From: Girardia tigrina
Taxonomy: Eukaryota
Assembly (NCBI GenBank): GCA_001938485.1
Contig: MQRK01253288.1
Coordinates: 31,987 to 84,692 of the forward strand
Length of the DNA: 52,706 bases
Reading direction: 5' to 3'
The notes under the pieces were generated by a model, which saw nothing but the letters and a program-made list of their open reading frames with translations, was not told where the DNA came from and ran no database searches. Each line of letters begins with the position of its first letter. Position 1 is the first letter of the stretch. Shown here in pieces: positions 6,096-44,060 of the stretch. Both the position numbers and the translations under genes were made by a program.

Positions 6096-6725
6096 TATAA
6101 ATTATAAGTAGTTTATATTAATTTTTAATGTGATTTTTAAATTAAAATTTTTTAAATCTTAAATTTTTACATTTTTAAAAACTTTGTTTGCAAAGTAGAG
6201 TTTTGACTGCATAAAGAATGGATATAAAAATTTTAATTTTGTGATTTACTAGTTAAAATTTAAGTTATTATTATTATTATTTGTTCCAGGTTGCTCTGTA
6301 GACTAACCAATGGTAGCAGAGTCATGACGCATTTGCTGTTGCTGTTCGTGTTAGGCTAACATTTCTAATTTATAGTTCATTTTAAAATCGTTAACTATAT
6401 TCAACTTTAAAATTACAGTCAAAAACAAAATCGTATAATTTTTTCACAAAAATATGCATACCTTTTTAATTACAAAATTGTGTAACAAAATAATCAAAGA
6501 ATCGTCTTTTAATCTTTAATTTTTTGATATCAAGCGGGGAAATATGAAATTTTCACTGGCTATTTATTTTCCAACTACCGGATCGGTTTGATAATATTGT
6601 AAAAATCATATATAGTTTTTACTTTTTCATTTATGAATTGCTTTTGTCTACGCTTGTTGAATTATTTTCTTCTGATACTCTTTAGCTAATAATCTCTTAA
6701 TATTGTTTTGTATTTTTCCTTTTAA

Positions 6726-9123
6726 CCCTTGAACGTTCACTTCAAGAACTGCTCACTAATAGTCACCTGGGTTCTGTACAGACCTCATATATAATATACA
6801 TACAGAGTGCTTTTTATATTCTGTTATTAAACGAAATAAACTTATATAGAAATAATATGGAAATGTATATTTCTTCTGAATTGTATGTTTGATTGTGAAT
6901 ATCTATATTAGTTGTATAAATGAACTTTGGTATAAAAGTTCTCTGGGGTTACCATCTTCTTTACAGTTTCTGTCTTTTTGCTTACATTCTGATATAATCA
7001 GATGTCACTCTTGTAATTTCTTCTCAAATTTTTATGTTACACTGTTGGAATTTGATACAGTTTAAAAAATAGAAGAAATATAAAAGTAAACTTTATAGAT
7101 GCAGGAATAGTCGAATACTTTTCAAACAGATTTGTAAGTGAATATAGCCGATTTTTTTACCGTGATTTTATGGGGCTCTAATCATCACCTTAAACTAGTG
7201 ACCAGTTTAATTTGCTTACTATATGAAGTTTTTATTTTGTGTTCTGATATTACAATACTACCTCATCGATCACAGAAAGCTGCTGCTACCAATGCTACCA
7301 GGGTGTTAATGTGCATTACATATGATTGTAGCGAGTCAGAAAGTGAATCAAATTTATCTAACGTGGACTATGATGAACCAAAAGCCAGTCGGCAGAGCAA
7401 TTGGAGTGCTGATGATTTTAAAAGTGAATTTGATCAAGGGGTCGCTGTTGGTACAATGACGTTCATCTTGCATAAAATGGAGAAGAGTCTTCTCGATCAC
7501 CAAACGTATGTCGACAAACGTCAGCAGTAAACATATTGAATTATACTTTCGGGCTAACAATGGAAGCAAAGCGGTTAGTGACAAGCATTCCAGACTCATT
7601 CCAGCTATTCTTCACCAAAGATATGGTTACAACAATAGCTACTAGTACAAACATAGAAGAAAGTACTTGGGGTTCAAAATGGAAGCCTACAGATGAAGTA
7701 GAGATTTGAACGTATATTTGGCTTTTCTTACTAGCGGTTGTTTATATATCAAGTCACTAAGTCATTCATTCGTTGTGGGATCCAGAGTTTTGCCTAAAAA
7801 TCTTTCTTGATTCCATGAGTAAGAGACGATTCAGTCTGATTACAAGAATGCTGCACTTTGCTGACAAAACAACGAGGAATGGACGAAGAGAAAAGTACAA
7901 ATTTACAGCTATTCGAGACTTCTCTCTCTTCGAAAAGCAGTTGAGCAAGTTCTTTCTGGCTGTTGATAGTGTCAATTGATTGACTTAAGAGGTCTATGCT
8001 GTTTTCGGCAGTATATGCCGCAAAAGCCAAGTCGTTATGGAAATTAGGTTGATGTACGATAGTCGAACAAGTTTTTTCCTGTGAATAAAGCCATATTTTG
8101 GAAACGAGGGAAACGATCGATCAGTTAAAATGCAAGTGACACCAGCAGTTGTAAACCATCTTGTACGGCCAATTGAGAACACATGAAGAAACTTAACAAT
8201 AGATTATTTCTACACATCCCTTGAGTTTCTTCGAGATCTGCAGCGGAAGAAATTGAGTCTTTTTGGAACTGTTCGTAAAACACGGAAAGACCTGCCTCCT
8301 ACATCCCTTGACATGAAGGACAGAACTGTTGGTAGTAGTGAATTCGTCTACAAAAAAGAATGTGTACTCGTGTCTCATTGTCACAAGCCCAAGAAATCGG
8401 TCGTTCTCATGTCCTTCAAAAATTTAGGTATCCGTTTACAATTTTGATTACTTTTTAACAAAAGGTTAATATGAGTTACTGTCATTTTAGGATCAGGTGT
8501 TATTGCTCCCTCCGGGAAACGTGAAATAATTCCACGCGAATTCAACCAAAGGTGTCGACACAGTCAATCCGTTAGTTTCCACTTATTCGTTGAAATTACT
8601 GACATGAACTGGGGTTGCAATTGGTTTGCATGAATAATGCCAACCAACTACTATGATTCCAACTGTCTGTTCCAGTGTTGTTTCAACCCTCAAAAGGAGA
8701 ATGTAAAAAGCAAGGCAGGTGTGTTACTTGTCCACGAAATCTAGACAGAAAATGTGCCACAAGATGTCGCTATTCCTCATTCATATTTCAGCAACATTTA
8801 TACTGCTCAAATTACCATTGTGATTGACGATAAACACTTCTGTTGTTTGTTAATGATTCAAGAAATTTGCATTTACTGTTTTTCGTCGGTTATTGTGTGT
8901 GGGGTTTGTACAGACCCCAGGTGACATTAAGTTTGCATTTTGTCTTCCATGAGCAATATTATAGAAATGAAGTTTGACAATTGACATCATTTTGAAGCTT
9001 TGAAAAGTTCTTTGTGTGACATTAAATGTCAGAGAAAAGTAACTGTTAAAAAATTGGAAGGTAGTACAAATTAGACTGCAACTTCAGCTGGGGTCTGTAC
9101 AGACCCCAGTGAATGTTCTAGGA
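6726..9123 (+). mobile_element. Full-length decayed piggyBac transposon (about 2.4 kb)
   Basis: TTAA TSDs at 6722-6725 and 9124-9127. TIRs CCCTTGAACGTTCACT and AGTGAATGTTCTAGGA (13/16 match). Transposase fragments MSKRRFSLITRMLHF, FRQYMPQKPSRYG, LTIDYFYT, GTVRKTRK and NSTKG-VD, with a C-terminal Cys-rich GRCVTCPR. Many stops and frameshifts. Confidence 0.93.
8428..8490 (+). other. Putative 63-nt intron in the piggyBac transposase, with U12-like donor
   Basis: GTATCCGTTT...CTTTTTAAC...ttttag, with an in-frame stop inside. Removal gives VVLMSFKNLG-SGVIAPSGKREII, restoring the usual spacing of the piggyBac LLS...GKPEII motifs. Confidence 0.65.
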
Positions 9124-9660
9124 TTAATATACAGAGGGAAAAATATCCATGCACCCCTGATTTTGTGCTTCTTTGTTCTTAAAGGATCAAAATCTTTTTT
9201 GATCGATAACAATATCAGATTGATCGATTAGGTTTCTCTATCGTCTGATCTTAATTTAATAGAAACTCGTGAGTGAAATCAGAAAAGAATATTTTTAAAA
9301 AAATCGTCCGAAAAAATTAACAAATAAACGTTTCTATTGTCTACTGTGTAAAATATCCTTTAGCAGAAGATTATGTCATTTTATTTTCTTTTCAAAATGA
9401 AGCAGTTTTTATAAGAAAAAATGTTATATTTTTTAGAGAGCATGAATAATATTTGATAAATTATTTCGACTTTATTTTGCTTTTATTAATATAGAAATTT
9501 ACTAAAAATCATACTAAAAGAAATAATAATCACATAATAATAAAATAATAACATAAATAATATTGATATAAATAAAATAGATAATGTGAAATTTGGTTTT
9601 ATATTTAAAATAGTGGAAAATTAAAGTGATATTTATATGATTAATTTATTTGACTTTTAG

Positions 9661-9956: not shown

Positions 9957-10034
9957 GTATCCTTTTGATGAAAGATCGTTTTCAATTTAAGCAAATGTCT
10001 TATAATTATTTTCATTTAACAAAATTTTTATTAG
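9957..10034 (+). other. U12-type (minor spliceosome) GT-AG intron, 78 nt
   Basis: Donor GTATCCTTTT matches the U12 consensus RTATCCTT. Branch-like TTCATTTAAC (10011-10020) lies 14 nt before the end of the intron. Removal restores KCC FV-Y-LS. Confidence 0.88.
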
Positions 10035-11578: not shown

Positions 11579-12226
11579 AAAATATATTTTTTAATGGCGT
11601 GTATTTGTTTTCATTTAAAAATATTTTTTTTATTTCTGCTTTAAAGTAAGAAGTGTCTGGTTTCTATGGCTTTCACATTTTCTGATAGGCTTCGTCTACA
11701 ACACATTCGTTGTATTTGAATTTTCTAGCAAAAGTATTGGGAACAACAAAAATTTATCATTAGCACCTTTCACTTCTTCTGAAAGTTTGCTTTCTTTTTA
11801 CAATATTATGCTTTCTTGGAAGATTGGTGTTTTGTCCTCTGTTACGATAATATCCAAGAATAGAGCCACAATTTGAGTATGAATGCTGAGGTTTTATTGA
11901 TATTACTGAATTCGCTTCTTAGATATGTATGGATTAAGAAAGTACGGCACAAACAGCTTTCTAACTCCTATTGAATGGAGAATGTTATGATCTTTTCCGT
12001 AGCTGATGTTTTAGGATTTCGGAAGTTGTTCATTCTTAGCTTTTAATTCATTTTGCACGATATTCTTCTGTTTTTTCCACCAATTTTCTAGAGTCTTGTT
12101 CTTCTTTCCTCAGCGTGAAAATTCGTTTTGCTACATTTAAAATCCCTAATCAATTGTAATTTGTAGACTGAGAGGGGACTTCTTCATCATAGATCTCACT
12201 AAGTCGTCATATTATTTCATCTAGTT

Positions 12227-12472
12227 CAGGGCTTCTTAAACTGTGGGTCGCGACCCCCAGGGGGGTCGCGAGACTACTGAAAGGGGGTCGCAAAGATCTG
12301 ATACTTTTCAATCATTATAAAAAAAATTTTAAAATTAGTATACACACTACGTATTACGATATTACATCTACATCTACGGTTAATATATTTCATTATATGG
12401 AAGAGGAGGTCGTTTAAAATTTCCTAAGCTTGAAGGGGGGGGTCGCTATATAAAAAAGTTTAAGAAGCCCTG
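12227..12472. mobile_element. hAT (Charlie-like) MITE (246 bp)
   Basis: Perfect 16-bp TIRs CAGGGCTTCTTAAACT. Perfect 8-bp TSD ATCTAGTT at 12219-12226 and 12473-12480. GGGTCGCGACCC subterminal palindrome. Confidence 0.95.
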
Positions 12473-14203
12473 ATCTAGTTCAATGTTCCTAAAAAGAAAA
12501 GCTTGATCATACGACGCTTTTCAACGTCAGATATCATTTTAAATTGAATAATCACGAAATTTGTCTGCCACAATAATTAAACGTTAAAACAAAGGCCATT
12601 GTGATACATCCCAGGACACCGCGTTCTTTGCGAACTGACTACACCTGATATTATCGTTTATGTGTCAGCAATCTCTGTTGTTTGTTCTTTTTAGTGGTGT
12701 GATTATTTTATTTTTTGTGTTTCAGGTTCTATCGTTGACTTTTTCATGTGATGATATATTTTCTCTATAGTTTGGTAGTGGATGAGTGTTCTTTCATCCG
12801 GGTCTGTTTGTATGCGTTGTGACTGTCGATGTTTTTTCTTTTATTCATTTTTATTTTAATGGAAATACAATTAGGTATTCAGTGAATAATTAGTTTGGAG
12901 ATTTATGCGTTATTTTTATTTGAATGGAGAAAGTAGATCGTGATCAGGAAGAAATTTAGGGAAAGAAGGTGAAGAAAAGATCAAAAAGAAGAAAGACGAT
13001 GGTCATAATTGCTAATTATAAAAATTCAAAAATTTAATAATAAAATAATCATTAATGCAATCAATAAAAAATTTACAAAAACTTACGATTTATGATGCTG
13101 CTCCGTATGAACTTTTTATATGTTGTTTATCATTAAAGAAAAGTTTGCGTCAAGCTAAAATTAAATTTTATTTTTCTCTTTGACAATTTGTTCTTAGTTC
13201 ATATTTTTTTAAACTAGGTTCATCAAAACCATGACCTTCCATTTTGATAAGCTTAGTTAAGTCATTCTGTAATGTTTATCTACTACAGTAGAAATATCAA
13301 ATTTATCGAACTAGCTAATAAGCGATAAATTTGTTATTTTTACAGCCATAATTGTTACCTCTGTAGATATACTTCTTTTTGCATCAAATATTCAGGATCA
13401 TACATTATGAATAATTTTACAAGTTTACGGACTTTATGGCGTTATTTTATTATTTTCTGTCAAAACAAAAGAAAATAAATTGCAATAGATTAAATGAAGG
13501 AACCAGTCAAGGAAATGACATAAATAAATATAAAACAACTGACTTTAAAAGAGACGTGAACTCGTAGGTAATGAAAATCGTCGAACTAACAACATCGGGT
13601 TTTGTTTTTACTGTATAGATATTGGATTAATTAGTTTTTCTTATGTGACAAATACTGTAAAGTAATCGGATAAAAATATAGGTTTTGATTTAAATCTTTG
13701 ATAATAACATAACCAAATTAAAGTCTCATTAATATGTATGGATTGTATAATTCTTTTTTTGGTATTTTTGATTCCTGAGTGTTGTTATTGACGTATACGA
13801 AATGTGCATATTACGACAAGTTTTAATAAAAAAAATTTGATTTAATTTGTAAGTATAAATTTTGAAAGTTGTTAATTTTATATTATATTTATATTATGAT
13901 AACAATACAGTGTGAAACATCCTGGTTGTGAACCATAATTTAAAGACCACTATTGAAGTATAAATAAAATAATATTTACAATTATTATATAGTAGATAGT
14001 ACTTTACACGTACTGTTATGCCGCAAGTATAAATACAAAACCAATGTGACCTTTGTTATACAATATTATTTATTTATCGGACTCTTGATGATTGTTTATG
14101 CAGGATTGAACAAGTTTTATTGTTGTTAAAGAACATGTGCCCGAACGTGTAGTTGATTTGGATGTATTTGATTACTTCAGAGTTGTATTAATTTTTGTAT
14201 TGT

Positions 14204-41925: not shown

Positions 41926-44060
41926 TAGTTGAATGTCACTTGAGCATTAATTTTAGGATTGTGTTACTTAATTGATTACTCTGAGCATGCGACTCTAACA
42001 TAATGGCGATTCATAAAATTAAAACAACTTTAAAATTAATGAGTTTCAAATTACTAATATTTCTTTCTATTATCAACCATATTACCACACTAATTTCGAC
42101 TGCCTTAGATTTCTTTTGTAAAGATGCTGTGACGTCTCTCCAATATATATGACATCGCATCCATTACAAAAATATTGGTCGAAACTAAAGATTGGTGGAA
42201 ATGCTAATAAAATTTTGATATTGACTGTTCAATGATGATTAAAGACGATTGAATTTGGTTTTGTAATAACTTTCTTAAATTAACATTATCTAAAATATTT
42301 ATTTTTCATAAATATTTTTAGTACATTCTTCTATAAGTAAGTATTTGTTTTTCTAATTTCACAATTTCCTCAAATATTTTTTGCAACTTAAAACTATTCT
42401 AGATTTAGTTAATAATCTTTTTTATAAAGAAGAACAATTTTTGTATTCACATTATAATATTAATTTGTTTTCGGTACGTTTCTGTTTTCTCATACTCCTA
42501 AACAAAGTATTTTTAATAACTTTTGTCACATCTTTTTCTATTATGTTTAATAATTTTATCTGTCTGAAAGATTTAATGAAAAATTTATTTAGCTTTTTGT
42601 TGTGTCTTTATTAGATATTGTTGCTCACTTTTTTCATAATATTTTAAGACTAGAAAAAGACTCGTCATATAAGACGGGTGAGCTGAATTTTCGTCTTTGA
42701 AAGTTTCTGTTTTAATTTTTAAATCGTAATTATTATAATTTATTATTTATTGGTTCGAATTCTGTGTTGATTTAACATGCGGCCAATTAAGTCGGCTCCA
42801 GTGTCATTCGGCGACGGCACTGCACCGACAGAATTGTATTGGTGTGGGCTATCCATATTGACATTATTTTTTTAATAATGAACATTTGTAATTTCTACAA
42901 AATTGATTTTTAGCAATAGAATTAGTAAATTAGTGATTAGTAAATTAATGATTAGTAAATTATTTCACAATCGATGATACCGTTATGGGGAAACGTATTT
43001 TTTCTATAATTAAAAATTATTAAAATAACGTGTTTTCTTTATCTTGTTTTTAAATAAATTGCCATTAAATCTAAATGTTTTGTATATGTTTAAATAAACA
43101 CGTATATATATATACAATCAAAACGCCATTTGTATTCGAAAAATTAATTAATTTAAAATTTTCATTTCTTGCAATCCATTTTGATACATTTTAGATTTGT
43201 TAAATGAAAGGAAAAGTAGTTATTATTAGATAGAAATTTATAGAAAGTAAACGGATACATAAATATAATACCACTACATACATGTGTATAAAACTATATC
43301 TTATAAAACAATTAAGATTTAAGAATTTTGTTCGACTAAAAGTACAATTAAATTTATATATTTAATTAATAAATATAGACATTTTCTACCATATTAATTA
43401 TTAAAATACAAAATGTGATTTGATTTTTCTTTCAGTTTGCTTCAGAAATTCTTTTATAGATTAAACTAATAGTAGAAACAATCAAAAAAGTGTTATTTTG
43501 ATATTTATTCAATCTAAAATAAAATAAAACAATTTAAAAATATATCAAAATAATCTTTTTCAAAACACTTTAAATATATTTAAAATTGAAGTAAGTTTTC
43601 TTTCTAAATAAAAGGTTACTTCAGTTCGAATGTTTCGAAGAATTCATTCTTTAGATGGAATTCATTCTGTTATGATAAATATTACACCATTTGCAGCAGA
43701 AAATTTAATAAATAATTATTTACGTATTTATTATAATACTAAATTTATTTTTCGTCGTTTTTCACTATTTTAAGATTATTTAATGTTAAGATTTTACATT
43801 TTCAATTGATGGGTGTAAGTGTATTCTATCTATTTCTACTAAATTTTATAGAACGTAAAACTAAAAGATGTTGTTTATTTAATAACGTTGTGAGGAATGT
43901 TTTGAATTGTTTGTTGTTTTATATTTTTCATGTTGTATGTTGATTCAGATTGTGTCTCTCCTACTCAGATATCATTTGGTATTTTCTTTGATTCCTACTC
44001 ATTGAAAATTATTTAATTTTAAAGTAAAAATATTTAAAATATTTTTCAAATGTAATATTT

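Follow-up and report, generated by a model that had tools for sequence, protein, structure and literature searches.

A family-wide 63-nt intron with a minor-like donor in a decayed piggyBac transposase of Girardia tigrina, most likely removed by the major spliceosome

The 63-nt block at positions 8428-8490 of the window (the whole 52,706-nt stretch of Girardia tigrina DNA that was analysed) belongs to a piggyBac transposase gene that has since decayed; it is a genuine intron, is spliced, and is present throughout the transposon family. In our strongly favoured explanation, this one family gained the intron, and the major (U2) spliceosome removes it even though the donor is minor-like. The assignment to the major spliceosome is inferred from a comparison of sequence features. 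The intron resembles the minor type at positions +1 to +6, yet it departs from that type in four sequence tests of membership. The AG/GT..AG/G context (a slash marks a splice site), the distant branch site lacking CC, the skipped AG, and the splicing of a copy with the donor GTATCTGT, together with a preference of the donor for U1, all point to the major spliceosome, and the dependence of the transposase on U12 proposed in the initial annotation is therefore unlikely. Since the ordinary machinery most likely removes the intron, a role as a minor-spliceosome brake on the transposase is improbable.

The element resides in an AT-rich genome of 1.43 Gb, within one intron of a gene encoding a K-Cl cotransporter of the KCC/SLC12A type (SLC12A4-7). 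This gene has its best relatives among flatworm proteins, and its exons flank the element on both sides. The element spans positions 6726-9123, with TTAA on either side, and its features and the host intron used for comparison are as follows.

6722..6725, + strand: left TTAA target-site duplication, from the sequence
6726..6741, + strand: left terminal inverted repeat, starting with CCCT, from the sequence; the family copies begin here
6747..6796, + strand: subterminal repeat, with an inverted copy at 8891-8940 and direct copies at 8895-8919 and 9084-9108
7255..8427, + strand: decayed transposase exon 1, with a mutated start codon, stops and frameshifts; PF13843
8428..8490, + strand: 63-nt phase-1 intron, AG/GTATCCGT ... 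TTTTAG/G, with a minor-like donor
8491..8602, + strand: transposase exon 2, which in other copies holds the motifs GKPEII and YNSTK
8603..8827, + strand: remainder of exon 3, encoding the cysteine-rich C-terminus and ending in the stop codon
9108..9123, + strand: right terminal inverted repeat, from the sequence
9124..9127, + strand: right TTAA target-site duplication, from the sequence
9957..10034, + strand: host KCC/SLC12A 78-nt U12-type intron, the in-species control, with boundaries by homology

The terminal inverted repeats are 16 nt long, with 13 of the 16 letters matching between the two ends, and the upstream exon matches PF13843 with an E-value of 4e-10. In the window copy, the start codon is altered at position 7257, which is G in other copies, and about 180 nt are deleted at 8602^8603, including the 56-nt second intron of the family. 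DNA searches of the genome returned 42 and 51 matches, indicative of a dispersed multi-copy element. The aligned copies differ by 7-15% from the family majority sequence, and no intact active copy was found among them, as they bear stops, frameshifts or deletions (the copy searches provide lower bounds). Many insertions recur on three near-identical contigs, which suggests haplotigs of a polyploid or a redundant assembly; the copy counts are inflated. Two further observations concern the surroundings of the coding region. In the region 7225-7257, a pyrimidine-rich TTCAG ends up 8 nt ahead of the start codon (at 7245, other copies have A), and together with a GTAAGT near 7134 it could form a 5′ UTR intron or a PGBD3-like exon-trap acceptor; the mapped contig is unspliced across the 7225-7257 region. 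Elsewhere in the window, at 12216-12483, 27-nt inverted repeats separated by 214 nt likely delimit a small non-autonomous element.

The block described in the initial annotation is confirmed, with GT..AG ends and two in-frame TGA codons. Among 30 family loci, 25 were aligned to the intron region, and every copy that spans the site has the block; two loci stop before the site, and one is interrupted inside the block by about 1 kb. Once the block is taken out, the majority sequence reads through 236 amino acids across the junction without a stop, and the distance from the conserved His to the YN motif becomes 17 residues. The same distance is 15-20 residues in 66 of the 68 motif matches, which derive from 66 of 150 homologues. 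The restoration of the frame and of the piggyBac spacing, predicted beforehand, thus holds, and so does the alignment to an intronless relative: the third related family in the genome (L219) lacks an intron at the site and has the same His-YN spacing. Removal of 48 nt instead, by using the AG at 8474-8475, would leave a spacing of 22, with five extra residues and beyond the 15-20 range. The six letters TTTAGG are compatible with both junctions of the 63-nt intron. A protein homologue search with the 79-aa exon gave no match.

The predicted junction, 8427^8491, is present in RNA-like contigs. Contigs of runs X1 and X2, which represent one sample available as contigs and whose RNA status was guessed by software, skip exactly 63 nt with GT..AG ends at this position, with depths at the spliced joint of 352.8 in X1 and 13.3 in X2. 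The diagnostic letters assign the spliced contig to the copy on G000:C125897 (and on two near-identical contigs), and not to the window copy. The DNA of the G000:C125897 copy retains the intron, and the contig is this copy with precisely three GT-AG pieces taken out, of 47, 64 and 56 nt, being 120 nt shorter than the DNA over the 64- and 56-nt introns. Three such precise losses relative to the copy's own DNA leave the contig unexplained as DNA. In addition, a poly(A) loose end occurs at 9081 in X1. The donor of the spliced copy is GTATCTGT. The block is also crossed by unspliced pieces of low depth (record 8 of X2 and records 11 and 13 of X5), which could stem from DNA, from host pre-mRNA or from other copies. 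The joint 8427^8476, which the proposed 48-nt variant would produce, is absent from the contig joints of the runs, where rare forms are dropped, and run X6 has no coverage of the element.

The transcribed G000:C125897 copy is itself dead and is read through from the flanking DNA. Its spliced transcript (L039:1000-1500) begins at least 305 nt upstream of the element end, in an AT-rich flank, and reaches the highest depth of the stretch, as in read-through from a host promoter. The 47-nt piece lost from the contig is a cryptic GTAAGT..CAG intron. In this copy (L002), a C-to-T change in the region corresponding to window positions 7945-7990 created the GTAAGT donor within the former transposase exon; the same T occurs in L021, while C is found in 8 of the 10 rows. 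Here a single point mutation turned part of the exon of a dead transposon into an intron.

How closely does the donor match a minor intron's donor? We compared ten rows, from which identical contigs had been dropped and which likely represent nine independent insertions, as L010 and L011 are probably haplotypes. The family majority donor is GTATCCGTT, in the context AG/GTATCCGT. The GTATCC core is kept in 7 of the 10 rows, and this motif is scarce, occurring at 54 of 22,918 GT sites in 507 kb, so the resemblance to a U12 donor is uncommon. A 12-letter match to the element donor, followed by TTTCATTTAAC, lies at window position 43258 on the minus strand; it is antisense to a host intron with no AG nearby, and we take it as chance. 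The U12-type donor is RTATCCTT over +1 to +8. At +7, however, the rows carry G (eight) or A (two) and never T, and the G mismatches both U11 and U6atac. The initial annotation ascribed the one-base departure from the consensus to decay of the window copy, but the +7 G is the family majority, and the expected consensus donor, GTATCCTT, is absent from all ten rows. None of the outcomes named in advance as fatal to the minor type occurred literally, in that the donor is neither GTAAGT nor GTATGT, the block is not private to one copy and no copy reads through it as coding sequence; it was the positive prediction for the donor that failed.

The exonic side of the donor also differs from the minor type, as the exon ends in AG (-2/-1) in 9 of the 10 rows. 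The validated human GU-AG U12 introns have no exonic AG according to the extract of PMC10853781, and the addition of an exonic AG to U12 minigenes had consequences ranging from no effect, in one of three, to conversion to a U2 site (PMC10853781, extract). Similarly, A-2G-1 is found in 3% of minor introns and in 32% of minor-like introns (PMC11347168, extract). The duplex energies calculated with the genome's own snRNAs agree with these features. The majority donor yields -5.6 kcal/mol with U1, -2.7 with U11 and -3.3 with U6atac, and the donor of the spliced copy, GTATCTGT, yields -5.7, -0.8 and -2.7 kcal/mol, respectively. The preference is reversed in the host U12 donor at 9957, with -1.3 for U1, -5.3 for U11 and -6.2 kcal/mol for U6atac. 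Accordingly, the element donor favours U1, while the host donor favours U11 and U6atac.

The branch region was also proposed to be U12-like, on the basis of a TTTAAC core identical to that of the host intron. In the element, the A of this core is at -33 relative to the acceptor that is used, as compared to -16 in the host intron and to a U12 optimum of 11-13 nt (PMC3584512, extract). The element branch, TACTTTTTAAC, lacks the CC of a TCCTTAAC-like site, which is a weak test because the host branch is imperfect as well. Among 811 stretches of 63 nt in the window, 24 contain TTTAAC, and a crude branch-register score of 7 for the element (7.5-8 for the host) is reached by 408 of 811 random stretches. 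The nearer GAG, 18 nt past TTTAAC, is skipped by splicing. The intron has the features of a U2-type intron: a junction complementary to U1, two yUnAy-type sites with the A at -33 and -22 (the latter within TTAAT), a pyrimidine-rich YAG/G end, TCATTTTAG/G, and GT-AG ends with removal from RNA, the last as the 63-nt joint of a sister copy in X1 and X2, from one sample. In the extract of PMC11347168, -1G, a downstream +1G, a CC-less branch and a long branch distance characterize the minor-like introns that are unaffected by the loss of the minor spliceosome.

The question of a minor intron is legitimate in this species, since the minor snRNAs are present. A genome search recovered U6atac, U11 and U12 above the cut-off, with canonical boxes, as well as U1, in line with the earlier suggestion of a host minor spliceosome. 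The nearby U12-type intron that had been pointed out is supported by homology at 9957-10034, with the junctions AT/GTATCCTTTT and AG/AT, and a branch lacking CC. Its type and boundaries are predicted from homology and pairing; the homology-based intron calling in KCC is noisy, and three calls out of 27 rows were used, each with a large gain and no rival boundary. The two other host donors are CAG/GTTTAG and CAG/GTTTAT. A KCC paralogue (L142, G000:C174901:54503-54757) has an uninterrupted reading frame where the host gene carries its U12 intron, and the minor intron thus seems lost there. When the genome was searched with a pattern of GTATCCNT and TCCTTAAC in short GT-AG introns, 10 matches were obtained, as compared to 19 in the reversed control; none of these 10 has G at +7, and none of three flanks had a Pfam match. 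At the NHE (PF00999) and DHHC (PF01529) loci, the four promising RTATCC sites lie inside introns or exons, and none at exon ends. Perfect TCCTTAAC branches in short introns are not enriched over the control genome-wide. Together with the CC-less host KCC branch, this may mean that U12 branch sites are loose in the species. More generally, because the rules applied here are borrowed from human and model species and one local U12 intron has been confirmed, a looser local U12 code is possible.

The relatives of the element place this intron in a wider pattern. At about 50% identity, the closest family in this genome is intronless at the 8428 position and carries a phase-0 intron of 72 nt, placed 10 codons upstream, with the donor AAG/GTAAAC. 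This larger sister family (L114 and L205-L220), which carries two short U2-type introns (72 and about 75 nt), accounts for most of the mid-rank genome matches. Proteins P0002 and P0005 terminate just past the position of its 72-nt intron, where a metagenome contig has AAA/GTAAGG. The clade shares a second intron, which follows the DIxG motif and has the donors CAG/GTTTGT in this family, CAG/GTATAA in the sister family and CAG/GTACCA in the third, where the donor is followed by a gap; P0006 has an in-frame insertion at the same position. An exonic AG followed by a weak intronic donor is therefore a habit of the clade, shared with the two other host introns, and GTATCCGT is one more example. Most other piggyBac families in the genome lack an intron-sized extra at the 8428 site, and no relative with an intron there was found among three metagenome loci (one clade member that ends just past its first donor, and two intronless) or 20 further loci of the genome itself. 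In the unrooted tree, the intron-bearing rows are separated from 11 others (98/97), with the order within them open; as four rows are missing and some rows have frameshifted ends, the tree gives no direction of gain. A single gain in this family is likely the simplest reading, and the compatibility of TTTAGG with both junctions would suit the insertion at, or duplication of, an AG/G site. This once-mobile piggyBac clade carries coding introns, one shared and the additional ones family-specific.

For the removal of the intron by the major spliceosome, we propose the following manner of recognition. U1 would bind across the junction by using the exonic AG (UAG/GUA plus +7/+8), U2 would take a yUnAy site, likely TTAAT with the A at -22, and U2AF would recognize the TCATTTTAG/G end. 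The 63-nt intron would be defined across its own length, like the other short introns of the clade. On this view, the TCC at +4 to +6 probably makes a weak donor resemble the minor type by chance; U6 might pair with it somewhat less well, but the gene would not be sent through U11/U12.

A U12-type intron gained de novo by the transposon, with the transposase output dependent on the minor spliceosome, is very unlikely. The GTATCC core in seven rows, the presence of U11, U12 and U6atac with canonical boxes, the TTTAAC shared with the host intron and the harmless exonic AG in one of the three human minigenes (PMC10853781, extract) speak for it, but +7 T is found in none of the ten rows and the base there mismatches U11 and U6atac, the exonic AG and the downstream G flank the intron, the branch at -33 leaves a nearer AG unused, and a copy with GTATCTGT is still spliced. 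Moreover, the extract of PMC3584512 describes U2-to-U12 conversion as highly unlikely, and de novo minor introns have very little evidence outside Physarum (PMC10639083 and bioRxiv 2020.10.12.336362, both in extract).

It is also quite unlikely that the intron is dual, with U1 usually winning and U11/U12 also binding, so that slower splicing or a minor 48-nt product modulates the transposase. Factors of both spliceosomes can bind minor-like introns (PMC11347168, extract), an in-frame GAG lies near the U12 range past TTTAAC, and unspliced pieces exist. However, the minor-like introns with -1G are unresponsive in the same extract, the joint to 8476 is absent among the contig joints, the 48-nt product ends at GAG and has a spacing outside that of 66 of the 68 motif matches, and the unspliced pieces are of low depth and may have other sources. 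Altogether, we regard as improbable a transposon gated by U11/U12 through a de novo intron that the minor spliceosome handles wholly or partly, and in which a +7 G donor following an exonic AG is specific to the lineage. That the block is not an intron at all, but an in-frame insertion or decay product, is barely credible: its length is a multiple of three and all copies are decayed, but the majority sequence has two stops, GT..AG ends and exact restoration of frame and spacing, and the spliced joint is seen, which even as the DNA of an unseen processed copy would need splicing.

If the minor spliceosome were needed, the element would offer a de novo minor intron, a type nearly absent outside Physarum according to the papers, and a new host route to throttle a transposon. 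On the present evidence, it provides a multi-copy record of intron gain, with one shared and two family-specific coding introns, and a set of naturally occurring donor mutants, GTATCCGT, GTATCTGT, GTATCGGT and GTATCCAT, in an animal where RNAi against the spliceosome is likely feasible. A GTATCC donor alone is insufficient for the U12 label. Our literature search, with subscription journals and Repbase outside its range, found no U12 intron in a transposase, and nothing on planarian minor introns or planarian piggyBac introns.

Introns in other DNA transposases have long been known. The Drosophila P element is a cut-and-paste transposon whose transposase needs host splicing, and its control is tissue-specific, through splicing by the major spliceosome. 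Host splicing is needed in both the P element and the flatworm element, and for the latter we do not claim regulation. The element shares the TTAA duplication, the CCCT-type ends, the DDD motifs and the Cys-rich C-terminus with the piggyBac-like elements (PF13843). It differs from the domesticated, intron-bearing PGBD5, PGM and TPB2 in being a mobile-type, multi-copy element that bears introns; in the extract of PMC5381638, coding introns are named for domesticated piggyBac genes only.

As compared to the host KCC U12 intron, the element intron has GTATCC at +1 to +6, the TTTAAC core and the short length in common, and differs in +7 G versus T, AG/GT versus AT/GT, AG/G versus AG/AT, and a branch at -33 versus -16. 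It is closer to the unresponsive subclass of minor-like introns (Olthof et al. 2024, PMC11347168, extract), which combine a U12-like donor with A-2G-1 and a downstream +1 G, a CC-less branch, a long branch distance and a pyrimidine-rich 3′ end; those are human introns, and an intron in a flatworm transposase is likened to them by these features. The gain of U12 introns in Physarum polycephalum (bioRxiv 10.1101/2020.10.12.336362, extract) likewise links DNA transposons with new minor introns. There, the element itself is proposed to be the intron in host genes, while in the flatworm the transposase gene holds the intron, which departs from the U12 type.
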